A DNA stretch of 32,000 nt from an archaeon (GTDB lineage: Archaea; Asgardarchaeota; Thorarchaeia; Thorarchaeales; Thorarchaeaceae), in the NCBI GenBank assembly GCA_024275415.1, contig JAJRZD010000031.1, positions 11,176-43,175 of the forward strand. Reading direction: 5' to 3'. The translations under genes were made by a program, and so were the position numbers. Below are positions 1-7,059 of this stretch, one piece after another (positions within the stretch are counted from its first letter, which is position 1; each line of letters starts with the position of its first letter). The notes beneath the pieces were generated by a model. The model searched no databases. It had not been told where the DNA came from and saw only the letters and a list, made by a program, of their open reading frames with translations.

Positions 1-25
1 ACAACCAATAGGTGATTTGACGAAT

Positions 26-118
26 ATGAGAAACACAGACATGAACTCGATACGAAAGAAGAGAACTCATCAGACTACCACTGATGCGATATACCACGCG
101 TATACTTACAGGAGGTAA
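26..118 (+). CDS. Small peptide ORF 1 (MRNTDMNSIRKKRTHQTTTDAIYHAYTYRR; alternative start ATG at 41)
   Basis: Hand translation. SD-like AGGTGA at 10-15 lies before ATG26. C-terminus is similar to the next ORF. The frame is also open to the window edge, so the start is uncertain. Confidence 0.55.
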   Translation: MRNTDMNSIRKKRTHQTTTDAIYHAYTYRR

Positions 119-124
119 GACAGA

Positions 125-205
125 ATGGCACTTTCAAAGAAACAAGTACCAAAGAAACCGGTCACAACACAAGCTCTCCACTTCGCATTTGTGTACAATA
201 GGTGA
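125..205 (+). CDS. Small peptide ORF 2 (MALSKKQVPKKPVTTQALHFAFVYNR)
   Basis: Strong SD GGAGGT at 111-116 overlaps the ORF1 stop. ATG lies 6 nt after that stop. Paralogous to ORF1. Confidence 0.65.
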   Translation: MALSKKQVPKKPVTTQALHFAFVYNR

Positions 206-211
206 TCCCTA

Positions 212-328
212 ATGTCAAATGCATCAGAAACATCCGAGCGGCGAAACCTGCAAGATTCACCGATCCATGATATGTTGCGCAAGAAGGAAATCGCCCTTGA
301 GGATGTCTTAAATCTAGAGGCGACCTAG
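212..328 (+). CDS. Small peptide ORF 3 (MSNASETSERRNLQDSPIHDMLRKKEIALEDVLNLEAT)
   Basis: SD AGGTGA at 200-205 overlaps the ORF2 stop. ATG lies 6 nt after that stop. Followed by a terminator. Confidence 0.6.
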   Translation: MSNASETSERRNLQDSPIHDMLRKKEIALEDVLNLEAT

Positions 329-346
329 TCGCCATTTCTTTTTTTT
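319..346 (+). terminator. Hairpin plus U-tract terminator
   Basis: GGCGAC-cta-GTCGCC followed by ATTTC and T8 (339-346). Confidence 0.65.
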
Positions 347-363
347 CTAATTCAAGGTATGCA

Positions 364-1173
364 TTATTTCCGAAACACTATCTGGTAGAATGCATCATTC
401 ATTACATAAGACACCTCGATATCTTTTGCCTTATCCGGAATATGCTCCAATGGTGGCTTTGCTGCGAAGAGACTGTTCGCTTTGATGATTTGTTTCCCTC
501 TCTCAGTTTCTCTCAATGTAGGTGATATCCCTTCATCGACGACTACCACAAAACCCCCCTTCCTTGCTATCCTCAACATCTCATTCAATGCTTTTGCTAT
601 ATCTGAGAATGTGTTGATCCCGCCAGTATGAAGGACTACATCGAACAAATTGTCGTGATAAGGGATATTGAATACGCTGCCATGAGTGAGGTTGATGGTC
701 AACCCGATGTTCATTGCTTTCCGTTGGGAAACACGTAGCATCCCCCATGAAACATCTAGTCCGTGAAGGTCAAGGCGCCTCATCTGGTCATCGAACGTTT
801 CTTTCAGTGCAACGAAGTTTGCCGCAGTTCCTATGCTCACATCCATTATTCGTGATGTGTCCTCGATTGGTACGAACTGGGAGAATCGTTGTCGCTCCTC
901 CAACATGTTGATGCCAAGCCAGTCGTCATATTGCTTTACCGCCTGGTCGTAGCCCTCCGCCATCTCGTCGTATTCAGCAATCCATTCCTTGTCCTCCTTA
1001 CTCAGGTCGGGATATAGCAAGCTGGGAATTCCTTCTTCAATTGGCCATTGGTGTCCTTTTTCACATACTAAGGCCCCATTCTCGACTCCATTGTGATTTT
1101 CTGAGAGTTCTGATATCCTTAGCCCCCTCTTGCATCTAGGACAGCATAAGATATTGATATGTGATGGCATCAT
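364..1173 (-). CDS. Class I SAM-dependent methyltransferase with N-terminal Trm112-like zinc-ribbon domain
   Basis: CPRC...LVCEKGHQWPIEEGIPSLL (Trm112-like). Motif I DVSIGTA, then GSVFNIPYHDNLFDVV and EMLRIARKGG. ATG1173/1170 preferred over TTG1182. Confidence 0.85.
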   Translation of the reverse strand: MMPSHINILCCPRCKRGLRISELSENHNGVENGALVCEKGHQWPIEEGIPSLLYPDLSKEDKEWIAEYDEMAEGYDQAVKQYDDWLGINMLEERQRFSQFVPIEDTSRIMDVSIGTAANFVALKETFDDQMRRLDLHGLDVSWGMLRVSQRKAMNIGLTINLTHGSVFNIPYHDNLFDVVLHTGGINTFSDIAKALNEMLRIARKGGFVVVVDEGISPTLRETERGKQIIKANSLFAAKPPLEHIPDKAKDIEVSYVMNDAFYQIVFRK

Positions 1174-1241
1174 GATAATCAATTCTCGCCATGGTCAAAT
1201 ACTAACCAGTATTTCTACTCATCGTGGGATATGTTGTCCTA

Positions 1242-2081
1242 TCATGTAGGCCTTTTTCCTAGCCAGCCAGTCAACGATTCTATCGTGGACAGCACTGTCT
1301 TCACTACTTGCCATTGTATCATGACAATCAAAGGATTTCGAATATGGAGCCCCCAGGGCTTTTGACTATCAGAGGTTGGATTGAACACAGCAATGCTTTC
1401 GTTTCCATCGACGACTATGATTGACATGGCATCAGGATCTCCACCGATGGATTCTAACTTGATTTCTTGGAGCACATGTCCAATGTTCTCAACTAACACC
1501 GCGGAGCTTGGTATCGCACTGTGAATTACCATATAATGTTTGAACTCGCTGAATTTATCCATCAGAGTACCTGTTGTATGCAGTTCAGACACGACCCCTC
1601 TACTCTTTGCCCTTGCCAGAGCGCTCCTGAGAGGGCTGACAAGCGAAGGTCGTCGGGTTGCAATGAATATAGACTTTCTCGCTCTATCAAAGGTAGAGAT
1701 GATGTCCAGAGTGATCTGTTCTTTCCCCTGCGTCGTCCAAACGAATTCTTCTCCAATGGATTCCCTTTCCCTTTCTAAGGTTTCAAGCGCTGTGAGAACA
1801 GCATCACTTGAGGCTTCCAGCTTCATACGTAGGTGTTCAATGGTGGCCCTAGGCGGGAGTGCCTGAAAAGTGGCAGGTTCCTTTCCAAGGATGCGTTGGA
1901 CAAAACCTTTCCTTTCAAGTGATCCAAGAGTTTCGTACACTTTGCTTCGTGGAACTCCTGATATTTCTGCAATCCTTCTCGCATTCGAACTACCTACCAT
2001 GACCAATGCCTTGTACGCTCTGGCTTCGTTGAATGTGAGCCCGAGCTTTGTCAGGTCATCAACAATCGAGTCTGAGATCAA
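1242..2081 (-). CDS. TrmB-family transcriptional regulator
   Basis: LGLTFNEARAYKAL...IAEISGVPRSKVYETLGSLERKGFV wHTH plus a C-terminal effector domain. Start likely TTG2081 (ORF track starts at 2108). Confidence 0.9.
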   Translation of the reverse strand: MISDSIVDDLTKLGLTFNEARAYKALVMVGSSNARRIAEISGVPRSKVYETLGSLERKGFVQRILGKEPATFQALPPRATIEHLRMKLEASSDAVLTALETLERERESIGEEFVWTTQGKEQITLDIISTFDRARKSIFIATRRPSLVSPLRSALARAKSRGVVSELHTTGTLMDKFSEFKHYMVIHSAIPSSAVLVENIGHVLQEIKLESIGGDPDAMSIIVVDGNESIAVFNPTSDSQKPWGLHIRNPLIVMIQWQVVKTVLSTIESLTGWLGKRPT

Positions 2082-2126
2082 ACCTGTTCCCCAACCACAC
2101 CGTTGCACAGTAATATATCAATTAGC

Positions 2127-2145
2127 TGTCACTTTAGGAGTAACA
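2127..2145. promoter_or_regulatory. Putative operator 1 (TGTCAC-N7-GTAACA), 8 nt from the AT-rich TATA-like element (2111-2119) of trmB
   Basis: Imperfect palindrome. Reverse complement of operator 2 at 17/19 positions. Confidence 0.55.
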
Positions 2146-2229
2146 CAGTGGATGCTGGTTTTGCATCTTCTGTTTCTAGAACCGAGGAATCCTCAGAAAC
2201 GACTTGTCCAAGTTCTCCTGATTCCGTCC

Positions 2230-2248
2230 TGTTACTCCCAACGTGACA
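2230..2248. promoter_or_regulatory. Putative operator 2 (TGTTAC-N7-GTGACA) upstream of the ABC operon
   Basis: Imperfect palindrome, 8 nt upstream of a weak TAAAT element at 2256, about 30 nt before the ABC start. Confidence 0.55.
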
Positions 2249-2285
2249 TCAGTCCTAAATCCACTTTTGTCCAATACCACTTGAG

Positions 2286-3248
2286 TTGATGTCTTTGATT
2301 GAAATCGACCATCTAAGCCATGTTTACAAAGGTGGGATTAAGGCTCTTGATGATCTTTCGTTCTCTGTTGAAGAGGGAGAGATACTCGGGTTACTCGGTC
2401 CTAATGGTGCAGGAAAATCAACATGCGTGAAGATGATCACAGGAGCAATCCGGCCGAGTTGTGGCAGTGTTCGGGTATCAGGGTACGAGGTTTTCAGGAA
2501 CCTCCGGAAGGTGCGTCATATCATCGGGGTGATGCCCCAAGAAACAGCTCTCTATCAGGATCTTACAGCTCAAGAAACCCTTGAATATCATGCTGATATC
2601 TATGGTGTGCCACGAGAGGTTCGGGATGACCGGATCGCAGAGATGCTGAAACTTGCAGGACTGTCCCTTCGTAAGGACGACCTTGTCAAGACTTATTCGG
2701 GAGGAATGAAACGAAGGCTGGCTCTTGTTCGGGCACTATTACATGATTCGAAACTACTGATATTGGATGAGATGAGTCTGGGTATCGATGTTCAGAGCCG
2801 TAACCTCATCTGGCAACAGGTGAAGATGCTCAAAAAGGAGGGCAAGACAATCATCTTTTGCACGAACTACATGGACGAGGCAGATGAGCTGGCTGACAGG
2901 CTGGTAATCATTGACCGAGGCAGACTGGTAGCAGAAGGGTCTCCCCAGAGCCTCAAAAAAACACATGTCGGAAATTTCATCATCGAGCTAGAGTTCAGGG
3001 GACTTACAGATGAGCAAGACCAATCTTGGATCAGTGAGCAGATTGGCCTAGAGGTAGAGTTGGCTTCAGAGAATGAGGATCCCGGCATACAAACCGCAAG
3101 AATCCAGAGCGAAGACGGATACAATGATTTGCCACAGGTCATCCGAATCCTTTCGAACCTCGGGATCACGGTCAGACAGGCCTCGATGCGCTCCCCCTCA
3201 TTGGGTGATGTGTTCCTTACAATAACAGGCTCCAAGCTGAGGGATTGA
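2286..3248 (+). CDS. ABC exporter ATP-binding subunit (DrrA/NodI-like)
   Basis: Walker A GPNGAGKST, signature YSGGMKRR, Walker B LLILDE. H-loop reads CTNYMDEA. C-terminal SLGDVFLTITG. Confidence 0.93.
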   Translation: MMSLIEIDHLSHVYKGGIKALDDLSFSVEEGEILGLLGPNGAGKSTCVKMITGAIRPSCGSVRVSGYEVFRNLRKVRHIIGVMPQETALYQDLTAQETLEYHADIYGVPREVRDDRIAEMLKLAGLSLRKDDLVKTYSGGMKRRLALVRALLHDSKLLILDEMSLGIDVQSRNLIWQQVKMLKKEGKTIIFCTNYMDEADELADRLVIIDRGRLVAEGSPQSLKKTHVGNFIIELEFRGLTDEQDQSWISEQIGLEVELASENEDPGIQTARIQSEDGYNDLPQVIRILSNLGITVRQASMRSPSLGDVFLTITGSKLRD

Positions 3249-4384
3249 TAGTGGTGTTACGTCAACTAGCTGCGATTATCAGGAAAGATTTACGTATTGC
3301 CCGCAGAGACCCCCGATTCATCGCGCCTTCCCTCATTGTCCCATTCATTCTTCTCAGTGTATATCTCGTTCTGTGGTCCTCTGTGGGCGGGGGGGAGTCT
3401 TTTGTCTGTGGGCTCGTTGTCGAGGACCAGACCTCATTCGGTGAAGAGATGGCAAAGATCATTGAAACTATGAAATCGTCAACCAACCATACTTGGTTCT
3501 CGGTCACCCGGTATGGCCTTGATGAGGCTGAACAGCTGTTCCTTCAGGGCGATTTGATTGCATACATCATCATACCTGATGGGTTCGGTGCTAACATCTC
3601 AAATAACCAGGATGCAACGGTGCTCATGAGAATCAATAACGCCAATGATGACATCGTAAAGAACTATGTGCACAGAATTGAAGCTGCTGTTCTTCTCTAC
3701 AATCAAGGCGCACGCTCCCCTGATTTCAACCAAAGCGAAGCCAAGGTTTCTCTTGAGGAGTATCATACGCTTGATATAACCCCTGGCAATGTTGAATATG
3801 CCGGAGCTGTAACTATAATCCTGTCGCTGATAACCTGTTCTCTTGCAGGACAAGTAATGAATACATCTTCCGAGTTCGAAAGCAAAGCAATAGAAGACAC
3901 TTTGAACTCTCCAATCTCTCGTTGGGTGTTGGTCGTTGGGCTTACTCTGTCAGCAATCCCTAGGTCGGTACTTGTGCTGGTCATCGTCTTCCCAATCGTA
4001 TCGCTAATCGTGGGTATCTCGCCCGTAGGAAATCCCATTCTTCTGGTGCTTGTTGTGCTTCTCTCAGTGCTTGCTCTGACCCCGCTAGGACACTTCATTG
4101 GAGTACTCACTAGAGAGAGGGAGAAGGCCCTGCTCGTTTCGGTGCTATTGGCAGTCATAGGATTCTTGGCTGGAGGAGGTCTGGCACCAGTATCTCTATT
4201 GCCCCTCCTCTTCAGGGTAGTGGCACTGCTTATCCCTATCTCACATGTCATCATCCTCTGGACTCGCCTGTTCTTCTATGATACAATGTCCGGCTTACTG
4301 CTCAGTATCTTTGCTCTGCTTGCCACTTGGGTACTCTTCACCCTTGCCGCGGTCTATGTCACGAATAAGGAGGTTGAAGGATAA
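3245..4384 (+). CDS. ABC-2 type permease
   Basis: KDLRIARRD N-terminus, one TM plus extracytoplasmic domain plus five TMs. 4-nt overlap with the ATPase. Confidence 0.9.
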   Translation: MIVVLRQLAAIIRKDLRIARRDPRFIAPSLIVPFILLSVYLVLWSSVGGGESFVCGLVVEDQTSFGEEMAKIIETMKSSTNHTWFSVTRYGLDEAEQLFLQGDLIAYIIIPDGFGANISNNQDATVLMRINNANDDIVKNYVHRIEAAVLLYNQGARSPDFNQSEAKVSLEEYHTLDITPGNVEYAGAVTIILSLITCSLAGQVMNTSSEFESKAIEDTLNSPISRWVLVVGLTLSAIPRSVLVLVIVFPIVSLIVGISPVGNPILLVLVVLLSVLALTPLGHFIGVLTREREKALLVSVLLAVIGFLAGGGLAPVSLLPLLFRVVALLIPISHVIILWTRLFFYDTMSGLLLSIFALLATWVLFTLAAVYVTNKEVEG

Positions 4385-5520
4385 TGGGTTACTTTCTTCG
4401 TGTCTTGAGAGCAACTATCTTGAAGGAAATCAGGATTCTGCGTAGGAACAAGGTCACGATTGGTCTTGTTGTCCTTGCTCCACTAATGTTCTGGTCTGGC
4501 TTCGTGTTATTGATGGGAGGTGTATATTCGCAAGGCATTGAGGCTGGTCTTGTTGTGCTTGAAACAGAACCTGGCTACTTCACAAATGGGCTCATCGAGA
4601 TCTTGGGAGCACCAGACGAGATTCCGCCGAACCTCATCCTTAGAGAGATGGACAATGACACAGCGTCAGCACTCTTCAAAACGGGCGAGATAATGCTGGT
4701 AATAGTAATTCCTGATGGGTTCGAGGAATCGTTATCTCAGAATGAGTCTACAAGTGTAGGGATCTGGGTGAACAACTTCCATGAGGACATGACCAAAAAC
4801 CTAAGGATGCCTGTGATTCGAAAACTAGACCTCTTCTATCAGACCTATCTCGGTGAAGATGCTTCAGTAGACTTTGACTACACCCTGCTTCGTCCCTATA
4901 CGTATCCTCGCCTCGGGTACATGACATGGACCATGTCAATATATGCGGTAATGTTTGGAGCGCTGTTCATGGGTGGGTCGCTGATGACACAAGAGTTCGA
5001 GGACAAGACTATCGAGGAAATCGAAATGGCGAGTCACTCTCCCGCAGCAATCACTGTGGGGAAGTTGCTGACCGGGGCGTCCATCGGTTTTATTGCTCCC
5101 CCCGTCCTGTTGCTTCTTGGTTTCGTTGGTTTTGGGATCTGGCCAAAAGGTGACATTATCACTTACATGCTTCTGTCATTGCCATTGTCTATAACCGCCT
5201 CTGGTATCGGAATCATACTGGGCTCTCTTGTGAAGCATTCCGTGTATATTGTTCCAATCTCGGCTCTTTCGTCCCTCTTCTACTGGATAATGGGCGGAGG
5301 GATGGTTCCTCTTCTTATCGCAGGTCTGAGTTTTGGTATAGCTGATACGTATTCTCCCATCTCGAATGCTTACAGGTCACTTACAGAGATGTTTGTTGAT
5401 GGCACATCCAGTTCCCTATTTGTTGATGCAGGCATACTATGGATGGCAGCTGTCGCATTCCTACTTTTTGCTCATCTTGCTGTGAAAAGGCTTTTGCGCC
5501 TCGGCAATCGTACTTTGTGA
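4384..5520 (+). CDS. ABC-2 type permease (second paralogue)
   Basis: KEIRILRR N-terminus, same topology, EFEDKTIEE...GKLL motif. 1-nt overlap with the previous gene. Confidence 0.9.
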   Translation: MGYFLRVLRATILKEIRILRRNKVTIGLVVLAPLMFWSGFVLLMGGVYSQGIEAGLVVLETEPGYFTNGLIEILGAPDEIPPNLILREMDNDTASALFKTGEIMLVIVIPDGFEESLSQNESTSVGIWVNNFHEDMTKNLRMPVIRKLDLFYQTYLGEDASVDFDYTLLRPYTYPRLGYMTWTMSIYAVMFGALFMGGSLMTQEFEDKTIEEIEMASHSPAAITVGKLLTGASIGFIAPPVLLLLGFVGFGIWPKGDIITYMLLSLPLSITASGIGIILGSLVKHSVYIVPISALSSLFYWIMGGGMVPLLIAGLSFGIADTYSPISNAYRSLTEMFVDGTSSSLFVDAGILWMAAVAFLLFAHLAVKRLLRLGNRTL

Positions 5521-5712
5521 ATTGGACAACATTGGGTCTAATCGTGTTTCTCTCAGAGAGCAACACAGGAACCAACTCCGTGAATGACAAAGCATGAATG
5601 CTACCGTGAATCATCCCACGTTTTGCCTCCCTCTCTGAATTGAACTCGACATGCTATTATATGGGTGCTGCACATAGTCGTGAGTCAATCTCTGATGAGA
5701 GGAGCGAGAAAA

Positions 5713-7059
5713 ATGACAGATGAAGAACTTACTCCTGACACTGCATTATCCATGGCAAAGAATGAGCCTGAACCAATGCGATGGCTATATGTCTTCGTCA
5801 TAGGACTTGGATTCTTTACAACAGGAGTCAGCTGGAGTGTGTACAACAGCTTCCTGCCTGCTGATTTCCTGCCATTGTTCATCCAAGGCGACCTTCAGAA
5901 CACGATTATTGGAATCATAATGGTGCTTGATAATGTTCTTGCATTATTACTGCAGCCATACATCGGTGCCCGTTCTGACCGCCAGCGCTCGAAGCTCGGT
6001 CGAAGGATGCCGTACATTCTCATTGGCACTCCCGCCGCAGCTGTCTTCTTCGCGTTGATCGCACTTGGTTGGGCTGCCTTCAACTTTTGGTTGATGTTCC
6101 TATTTATCACTATATTCAACGTGTCAATGGCATACTATAGGGCTCCAGTGGTTGCACTTATGCCTGATGTTGTCCCCTCTGAGCATCGTAGCAAAGCCAA
6201 TGGTGTGATCAATCTCATGGGAGGAATTGGAGCCATCTACGCCTTCGCTATTGCTTCCCAAATATACAAGATCAAAGACCCCGGCCTAGCAGCATTATTT
6301 GCCACCACGACCACTAGGATCGGACCTATCCTTGCTTTCCTGACCACCTCTATCATTATGGTTGTCGCAACCATCATCCTTTTCGTCGTGATCAAGGAAC
6401 CCGAGGTGCCTCCTGTTGATCCTGATAAGCCAGAGGAGGTTGGCATAATCGATGCAATACGACAGGTTTCTTTCAGCTCTGATAAGAGTGCCATCGCCCT
6501 GTTGCTAGCCATACTCTCGTGGTTCTTTGGCTACAACGCCATCGAAACGTGGTATACAAAGTATGGTAGTGAGGTTCTTGGTTTCGCCACGGCTGATTCT
6601 GCTTTCCAACTAACCGCATTTGCATTATCCTTCGTGGTATTTGCAATTCCTGCAGGGTTGATTGCTGGTAAAATAGGGCGCAAAAAGACTATCATGGTGG
6701 GACTTGTCATAATGATTACTGGGATCGCTCTCCTTATCGTTGTGATAGATTATTATCTCATGATGGTGATCCTAATCATCGCCGGTTTGGGTTGGAGCTT
6801 AACAAACGTTAATTCAATCGTCATGCTGTGGGAACAATTTGGAAAGGCGCGATTGGGGGCTGGAACTGGTCTTTACTATCTATTCAGCATGGGCGCAGCG
6901 ATTTTTGGACCGGTCATCTCAGGTGTCATCTTCGACCTCACGACAATCGAGATTCTGTTTCCGCTCTCGATTACTTTTCTGATAATAGCACTCATTTTCA
7001 TGTTGATGGTGCGGACTGGCGAAGTTGGAGATGAGGTAATCTCTGAATATGCATCATAG
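5713..7059 (+). CDS. MFS transporter, MalT/sucrose-symporter-like
   Basis: GARSDRQRSKLGRRMPYILIG motif A, about 12 TMs, second repeat KIGRKKTI. ATG5713 with GGAG SD preferred. Confidence 0.9.
   Translation: MTDEELTPDTALSMAKNEPEPMRWLYVFVIGLGFFTTGVSWSVYNSFLPADFLPLFIQGDLQNTIIGIIMVLDNVLALLLQPYIGARSDRQRSKLGRRMPYILIGTPAAAVFFALIALGWAAFNFWLMFLFITIFNVSMAYYRAPVVALMPDVVPSEHRSKANGVINLMGGIGAIYAFAIASQIYKIKDPGLAALFATTTTRIGPILAFLTTSIIMVVATIILFVVIKEPEVPPVDPDKPEEVGIIDAIRQVSFSSDKSAIALLLAILSWFFGYNAIETWYTKYGSEVLGFATADSAFQLTAFALSFVVFAIPAGLIAGKIGRKKTIMVGLVIMITGIALLIVVIDYYLMMVILIIAGLGWSLTNVNSIVMLWEQFGKARLGAGTGLYYLFSMGAAIFGPVISGVIFDLTTIEILFPLSITFLIIALIFMLMVRTGEVGDEVISEYAS

Follow-up and report, generated by a model that had tools for sequence, protein, structure and literature searches.

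A stretch of 32,000 nucleotides from a member of the archaeal family Thorarchaeaceae (NCBI GenBank assembly GCA_024275415.1, contig JAJRZD010000031.1, positions 11,176 to 43,175 of the forward strand; hereafter the window) opens with three unannotated micro-open reading frames (ORFs) of 30, 26 and 38 codons, all on one strand between positions 26 and 328. Together with a promoter just outside the window, positions 1–348 constitute a single self-contained transcription unit of a Thorarchaeaceae-specific gene family, and all three cistrons are under purifying selection at the amino-acid level. Judging from the sequence, the unit may produce trans-acting, cationic, helical micro-proteins together with an acidic partner in a fixed ratio, a reading that we favor and to which we assign about an even chance. 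Below, the cistrons are named by type, A1 for ORF1, A2 for ORF2 and C for ORF3, and the source genome is denoted G000. The features of the unit and its immediate neighbor are as follows.

1–25, plus strand: 5′ untranslated leader, including the Shine–Dalgarno (SD) sequence of ORF1, AGGTGAT, at 10–16.
26–118, plus strand: ORF1 (A1 type), 30 amino acids, net charge +5, C-terminal end ...TTDAIYHAYTYRR.
111–116, plus strand: SD of ORF2, GGAGGT, overlapping the TAA stop of ORF1 (116–118).
125–205, plus strand: ORF2 (A2 type), 26 amino acids, net charge +5, beginning MAL..., lysine-rich, ending ...TTQALHFAFVYNR.
198–205, plus strand: SD of ORF3, AGGTGATC, overlapping the final arginine codon and the TGA stop (203–205) of ORF2.
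212–328, plus strand: ORF3 (C type), 38 amino acids, net charge −3.
319–348, plus strand: hairpin GGCGAC-CTA-GTCGCC (319–333), enclosing the ORF3 stop (326–328), and T-rich tract (T8 at 339–346).
364–1182, minus strand: class I S-adenosylmethionine (SAM) methyltransferase with an N-terminal Trm112-like zinc ribbon, convergent and syntenic with the unit.

The ORF1 ATG at 26 lies 9 nt past its SD, the TTG at 17 and the ATG at 41 being less likely starts, and the gap from stop to start is exactly 6 nt at both the ORF1/ORF2 and the ORF2/ORF3 junctions. The GGAGGT at 111–116 is used twice, as the SD of ORF2 and as both C-terminal arginine codons of ORF1, and is kept as (A/C)GGAGGTAA across nearly all loci; at the position of the ORF3 SD, other genera carry AGGTAGAT. 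An 11-mer, CAATAGGTGAT, is present at both 6–16 and 196–206. Since SD-like motifs precede only ~16% of the long ORFs in G000, by a crude first-ATG estimate, three strong SDs in succession are not background; the 16S 3′ end is absent from the assembly, and SD complementarity was therefore judged against the general archaeal anti-SD. The original prediction, made from the window alone, had described this layout, and its ORF coordinates, SD/stop overlaps, 6-nt gaps, hairpin with T8 and 11-mer positions all proved correct on re-checking; its proposal that the cistrons are coupled in translation is probably right as well. Its caveat, that the terminal arginines may be imposed by the overlapping SDs, also stands: the Arg-Arg with which ORF1-type peptides end is encoded by the AGGAGG that serves as SD for the following cistron, and the final Arg of ORF2-type peptides by the AGG in AGGTGA or AGGTAG. 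Where the SD stands apart, the peptides end in ...YKQM, ...YKQV or ...YREV.

Evidence that these ORFs are genes comes from relatives. A DNA search returned collinear weak matches in two same-genus genomes, which contain all three ORFs with many substitutions. Anchoring the comparison on the convergent methyltransferase in 86 family genomes yielded 30 loci, of which 28 carry the A1-A2-C unit beside the methyltransferase (the main locus), with SDs, spacing, promoter and hairpin kept. A1 is ~35 amino acids long in these relatives and ends in ...AKVxTTDAIGYAYxYRR; A2 is ~29 amino acids long, starts with MALAK, is rich in Lys and Arg and ends in ...ISTDAITH(S/A)YxYR, so that the A peptides share the motif ...DAIxYAYxYR(R). 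In the A1 alignment one Ala is invariant and A, Y, R and R are near-invariant, and in that of A2, M, T and A are invariant. C spans 37–40 amino acids, with 28 variable N-terminal residues followed by a conserved C-terminal ..(E/D)(E/D)VLx(L/W)EAT (commonly ...T.EEVLxWEAT); some genera have an additional upstream paralogue, A0, ending in ...LYY(A/D)Y.... A profile hidden Markov model (HMM) of A2 matches 74 of 85 Thorarchaeaceae genomes, and on 315 other genomes of the phylum it found nothing credible, the matches there lying inside long ORFs or lacking a start codon. The shared aromatic C-terminal motif that had been pointed out in ORF1 and ORF2 is real and is the most conserved part of the family.

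The encoded peptides are also under selection. Pooled over all aligned pairs among 21–24 orthologous cistrons per type, drawn from genomes of a single family that are not independent samples, pS is ~0.65 (saturated) versus a pN of 0.23–0.34. Overall dN/dS among cistrons is 0.17–0.32; it is 0.17–0.18 in the final 14 codons of A1 and A2 (A1 0.18), 0.17–0.26 for A2 and 0.26 for the C tail. That starts, stops, SDs and spacing persist at such divergence goes far beyond what chance would give. The N-terminal part of ORF3 is nearly unconstrained in sequence, yet its frame remains open for 37–40 amino acids in all 25–29 loci. The original view of a genuine, unannotated peptide family in an Asgard lineage is borne out. 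Within G000 only one A1-A2-C unit was found and a tblastn search for paralogues gave only noise, a single-copy count that is uncertain because this metagenome-assembled genome (MAG) consists of 127 contigs and repeats are easily lost. ORF1 and ORF2 of G000 are unusually short and divergent for the family, and its terminal hairpin differs as well.

The 5′ boundary of the unit lies immediately outside the window, at G000:C7 11131-11158, where an inverted repeat, GTTTG-N5-CAAAC, abuts a transcription factor B recognition element (BRE) and TATA box, CCAAACCTTTATATC, 54 nt before the ORF1 ATG. In ~20 related main loci the inverted repeat and TATA box are nearly invariant, 39–40 nt before the first ATG; searched across G000, the inverted repeat occurs at this site alone. 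Upstream of the unit an AT-rich intergenic region is followed by a divergent gene (G000:C7 10277-11008) encoding a 243-amino-acid winged-helix protein related to Pyrococcus PH1932 (E 7e-6), with weak PadR and HTH_20 Pfam matches, and such a PH1932-like gene is divergent from the unit in essentially all main loci. The array had been expected to continue past the window edge, an expectation that this promoter and the divergent winged-helix gene overturn. The supposed upstream frame ending in ...TTNR* has no ATG, GTG or TTG start and spans the TATA box; the 11-mer copy at 6–16 is therefore nothing but the ORF1 SD within the 5′ untranslated region.

Related promoter elements were observed at other sites. 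Outside the window, a second CAAACCTTATATAC is located at G000:C9:46240-46850, followed by two direct copies of TGGTCACTAGT; it precedes an unannotated short ORF and then a Cdc48-like ORF, named by reading its translation. This site may be a candidate stress operator, and because the second copy precedes other ORFs, CAAACCTTATATAC is probably simply the local BRE/TATA consensus. In another genome (G008:C16, L004:1200-1640, minus strand), the inverted-repeat/TATA promoter of the main locus stands before a single divergent 36-amino-acid ORF that begins MALAKKQKKQ and ends ...EVYRTSFVR; its host belongs to a sub-lineage of genus g3 that has neither the three-cistron unit nor the methyltransferase.

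At the 3′ boundary, the hairpin and T-tract would serve as the transcript end and as a stabilizer. A terminator scan observed 2 sites versus 0.2 expected in shuffles, and a hairpin spans the ORF3 stop in 25 of 25 loci folded. Most genera have a GTGCTC...GAGCAC hairpin that contains an inner GTGG/CCAC stem, and 2 of the 6 pairs in its outer stem show compensatory changes; the genus of G000 has the shifted GGCGAC/GTCGCC stem. Under both hairpin types Val-Leu-x-(Leu/Trp)-Glu-Ala-Thr is retained through synonymous changes, which argues that the peptide tail itself is constrained. An Rfam search gave no relevant match at the unit, and viral contigs contained 0 matches to the conserved hairpin/coding pattern.

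Beyond the main locus, the family also occurs in dispersed copies. Relatives show a maximum of 13 cistron matches at E <= 1 and of 11 at E <= 0.1, and the dispersed copies are units of ~400 bp; one genome (G014) has five, 88–97% identical over only ~410 bp from an upstream palindrome through the T-tract, amid unrelated neighbors. These dispersed units, here class II, carry a different operator-like palindrome, AGTCACA-N4-TGTGACT, well upstream of the TATA box and conserved across genera. A mobile-element origin was considered and set aside: the common sequence runs exactly from promoter to terminator and no terminal inverted repeats were seen. In a sample of 40 further, non-main loci, the units are composed as A1-A2-C, A-A, A-A-A, A0-A or a single A, and 14 of the 40 share another syntenic location, a second home of the family, where an unannotated gene of ~200 amino acids runs convergent with the unit. 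The product of this gene (L137:2285-2881 and 13 relatives, in L139, L140, L142, L143, L146, L147, L149, L152, L153, L159, L163, L166 and L168) is conserved, has a CPxCG-like N-terminus and matches nothing in Pfam. The gene lies 20–50 nt from a class II A1-A2-C unit in all of these loci but L163; in L163 the distance is 145 nt and the unit is A1-A2.

The peptides have almost no presence in databases. No member matches Pfam-A or NCBIfam at or near a curated threshold; a scan of 45 members at E up to 10 yielded a single hit, to Mst1_SARAH (E 0.037), which we judge to be chance. The ESM Atlas gave no usable match, 1.84 billion proteins contained only 19 representatives, of 34–49 amino acids and, where checked, unnamed or "hypothetical", and we found no description of the family in the literature. 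The mean net charge is +4.7 for A1, +6.1 for A2 and −1.9 for C; in all three the longest apolar run is at most 8 residues, the mean hydrophobicity is negative and the hydrophobic moment is ~0.2. AlphaFold2 (AF2) with the family alignment predicts A1 as a single helix (pLDDT 74) and C as disordered apart from a short helix over the conserved tail. Complex prediction of A1, A2 and C with alignments scored 0.02; the partner fold is uncertain and the peptides are below calibration sizes, and we use this result neither for nor against an interaction. If helical, the A peptides would present a small-xxx-small face, formed by the invariant Ala and a near-invariant Ala/Ser four residues on and flanked by an aromatic ladder.

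Similarities to known sequences were also pursued. The C-terminal half of A1 bears an ungapped 19-residue likeness to the N-terminal rRNA-binding helix of the bacterial ribosomal protein bL20 (...A..A...YAYRDRR), both being basic and helical. Kinship was rejected: the best PDB profile match, 9g6k_LB, reaches only an insignificant E of 0.61, hhalign against 28 bL20 sequences gives a probability of 4% (P 0.01), and PF00453 has no match in G000. The likeness would be convergence at most. The HbYX proteasome-activating motif, suggested by some A2 peptides ending in L-Y-R, was likewise dismissed on account of the varying distance of the Tyr from the C-terminus.

Throughout the family, synteny extends over a block made up of the regulator, the micro-operon, the methyltransferase, a TrmB-like regulator and an ABC ATPase, so that finding the methyltransferase next to the unit means little; the methyltransferase is missing from genera g4, g5 and g7, which do have the peptides. 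In the same-genus MAG G003 (G003:C161:5442-6259, partly in L002), the Trm112-fused orthologue appears as two separate matches with an in-frame TGA, and represents either a pseudogene or an assembly error. The neighbor survey comprised Pfam searches at this locus and of ~30 immediate neighbors of paralogous loci, and clustering of all neighbors. Dispersed copies lie beside genes as varied as DsrE, Cbf5/TruB, DinB, PolX, luciferase-like, GNAT, DsbD, FtsX, CLC, UvrA, aminotransferases and hemerythrin. The only recurrent theme is that of major facilitator superfamily (MFS) transporters, from three MFS families, co-directional and downstream of A cistrons. In L080 and L138, C is replaced by an MFS_3 open frame immediately behind the A2 stop, with no canonical start codon at the junction; in L154, L161, L162 and also L075 an MFS_1 of 511–594 amino acids is located ~255 nt downstream; and in genus g4 (L164, L170, L174) an MFS_1/2 lies ~400 nt past the unit.

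In the window itself no transporter is adjacent to the unit; an ABC transporter and an MFS gene lie 2–5 kb downstream as part of the long syntenic block, and most copies in relatives have no transporter alongside. The window MFS (5665–7056, plus strand) is 64% identical to the g4 MFS downstream of the micro-operon in L170, and thus the adjacency of unit and MFS in g4, where the methyltransferase–TrmB–ABC block is absent, may be an old synteny; the 5-kb block at window 364–5500 (methyltransferase, TrmB-like regulator and ABC transporter) would be either an insertion here or a deletion in g4. Elsewhere, G045:C1 (L075:5800-8200, minus strand) has two class II promoters, each with just one A-type cistron; downstream of one of these cistrons lies the gene of an S41 C-terminal processing peptidase, and downstream of the other a second promoter, of class I type (GTTGG..CAAACCTTTATAT), ahead of an MFS_1 transporter. 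RimJ/RimL-like GNAT genes (Acetyltransf_3) occur near class II units at L141:3851-4522 (g6) and L072:5168-5749 (g9), both Pfam-scanned; their relatives form a g6 cluster (L141, L148, L150) and a blastp cluster of L072 with L077 (g11, with a weak A match, E 0.001) and L083 (g6). One might speculate that the near-invariant Met-Ala N-terminus of the peptides, after removal of Met, is a typical GNAT substrate.

How might such a unit work? In the reading that we favor, the BRE/TATA promoter flanked by the inverted repeat would give rise to an mRNA of ~330 nt with three micro-cistrons, ending at the hairpin and T-tract, and the PH1932-like winged-helix protein would control the promoter through the inverted repeat. 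Stop/SD overlap and 6-nt spacing would couple translation and thereby yield three products at a fixed ratio. A1 and A2 are envisaged as paralogous, very basic, non-hydrophobic single helices acting in trans; their conserved C-terminal half, with its A-x-x-x-A/S small-xxx-small motif, Tyr/Phe/His ladder and terminal Arg, would suit helix–helix pairing as well as stacking or ionic contacts with a polyanion, for instance RNA, DNA or the ribosome. C, acidic and mostly disordered with a short conserved C-terminal helix, would be the partner or neutralizer of A1 and A2. We rank a trans role first because most units stand alone with their own promoter and terminator, because the unit is near-universal in the family, and because the number of copies would suit products needed in abundance. 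The repeated chaining of A cistrons to MFS pumps points to a role in transport or stress response, not in the synthesis of peptide natural products. Several observations weigh against this reading. For peptides of 35 residues, an AF2 model of a single helix is weak support. Instead of being an operator, the inverted repeat may consist of two BRE elements placed back to back that belong to divergent promoters. The trio is not obligate, as paralogous units are often without C. Finally, conservation is limited to the last 10–14 codons in all three cistrons, a pattern that fits cis-acting nascent peptides too.

That last point leads to the possibility that the cistrons encode cis-acting nascent peptides of the SpeFL/TnaC ribosome arrest or sensor type, whose C-terminal 10–14 residues work in the exit tunnel, which we regard as unlikely but with an appreciable chance of being right. 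A ribosome held at a stop codon would cover the SD and start 6 nt on, and at ORF3 would melt the hairpin; either effect would set the translation or read-through of downstream sequence. The A and C cistrons would then be the first archaeal ribosome-sensing nascent peptides, gating the next SD, the chained MFS pump and the ORF3 hairpin, a proposal that we hold to be equally doubtful. More speculatively still, abundantly translated mini-genes might free ribosomes of a toxin that binds in the tunnel, with the pumps exporting that toxin. The conserved part is indeed the C-terminal residues and the stop, only length and composition being kept upstream, and the lengths of 26–40 amino acids approximate the capacity of the tunnel, so that the conservation in C-terminal tunnel residues expected of an arrest peptide is seen. 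Each stop codon overlaps the SD that follows, the ORF3 stop is enclosed by the conserved hairpin ahead of the T-tract, and MFS transporters of three families come directly after A cistrons in relatives. SpeFL is a 34-amino-acid leader with a basic sensor segment and an aromatic C-terminal effector domain ending in Ala-Arg-stop; its hairpin includes the 3′ end of the ORF, and it controls an operon with a transporter (bioRxiv 10.1101/604074). The present peptides match this architecture in their ~30 amino acids, basic middle, aromatic C-terminal cluster with Arg-stop, C-terminal conservation and hairpin over the ORF 3′ end; the link to a transporter operon exists in some paralogous loci only, and the likeness is architectural, without sequence homology. 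However, a terminator follows at this locus and in most copies, and the next gene is usually convergent, leaving nothing in cis; a position upstream in cis of a regulated gene, also expected of arrest peptides, is found only at some paralogous loci. Units of 2–4 paralogous cistrons, with up to a dozen cistrons per genome in many units, are furthermore unlike known leader peptides, and the host is an archaeon, a domain from which no arrest peptide is known.

The remaining alternatives concern the fate of the peptides after synthesis, or deny them altogether. Export as leaderless cationic peptides (an archaeocin or a signal), with C as an intracellular neutralizer and the MFS and ABC pumps as exporters, has a small chance of being correct. 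Staphylococcal psm-alpha, aureocin A70 and garvicin KS are amphipathic, hydrophobic, membrane-active and patchily distributed peptides exported by ABC transporters. Like them, the family consists of tandem paralogous cistrons (20–35 codons in those systems) with their own SDs, encoding cationic peptides of ~30 amino acids without signal peptides, missed by annotation and accompanied by a dedicated regulator; it is also lineage-specific and multi-copy, in relatives its A cistrons are chained to MFS pumps, among them the MFS_3 "secretion effector" type, and here the ABC transporter and MFS gene lie downstream. The Thorarchaeaceae peptides differ in being strongly polar, with no amphipathic or hydrophobic helix of the membrane-active kind, in including an acidic third peptide, and in forming a near-universal, syntenic core gene of one family under strong purifying selection instead of a patchy, fast-evolving accessory; a transporter is absent beside most copies, and MFS pumps are not known as exporters of 30-residue peptides. 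A slimmer chance attaches to the proposal that these are precursors of ribosomally synthesized and post-translationally modified peptides (RiPPs), as the original prediction had suggested, or of a peptide cofactor, with the Tyr/His-x-Tyr C-terminus cross-linked or otherwise modified by enzymes encoded elsewhere or by the adjacent methyltransferase. Triceptides, biarylitides and cittilin derive from short precursors with aromatic-x-aromatic cores, which the motif close to the C-terminus recalls, and the combination of a conserved core and scattered precursor genes brings cofactor precursors to mind. Among PDB sequences, the methyltransferase matches the RiPP C-terminal methyltransferase LahSB best (E 7e-9), in the generic SAM-binding region only. 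Yet no radical SAM (rSAM), SPASM, YcaO, P450, LanM-type lanthipeptide or other recognized peptide-modifying enzyme, nor any recurrent peptidase, stands beside the unit here or elsewhere among ~55 loci, a lone S41 peptidase after one A cistron aside, and the triceptide claim is not sustained. The methyltransferase is convergent, sits in a longer syntenic block and is absent from genera that keep the peptides. The distance from the last Tyr to the C-terminus varies (YR, YRR, YNR, YSR, YREV, YKQM), and the usual pattern of a conserved leader and a variable core is reversed, since it is the very basic N-terminal halves, unlike typical leaders, that are variable and the last 12–14 residues that are conserved. 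Finally, that the ORFs arose by chance within a non-coding RNA, or are what remains of the 3′ end of a decayed longer gene, has a practically negligible probability. The three ORFs do share one frame in this window, but in other genomes the cistrons stand in different frames relative to one another, with starts, stops and SDs maintained, and a decayed long gene is thereby excluded; dN/dS well below 1 at saturated synonymous sites, the absence of an Rfam match and the open ORF3 frame in 25–29 divergent loci argue against chance ORFs.

Asgard archaea have been mined intensively for eukaryote-like proteins, yet genes below ~40 codons are invisible to annotation, and an entire family, with one to about a dozen cistrons per genome and its own promoters, operators and terminators, has been overlooked. 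It is a near-universal and strongly selected trait of the Thorarchaeaceae without relatives elsewhere, and three peptides within 330 nt offer a compact test case for the roles of micro-proteins in an uncultured lineage. Are these free micro-proteins or ribosome-sensing nascent peptides? Conservation confined to the C-terminus and the chaining to efflux pumps make this question directly testable, and the seemingly "empty" intergenic gaps in Thorarchaeaceae MAGs merit re-annotation.

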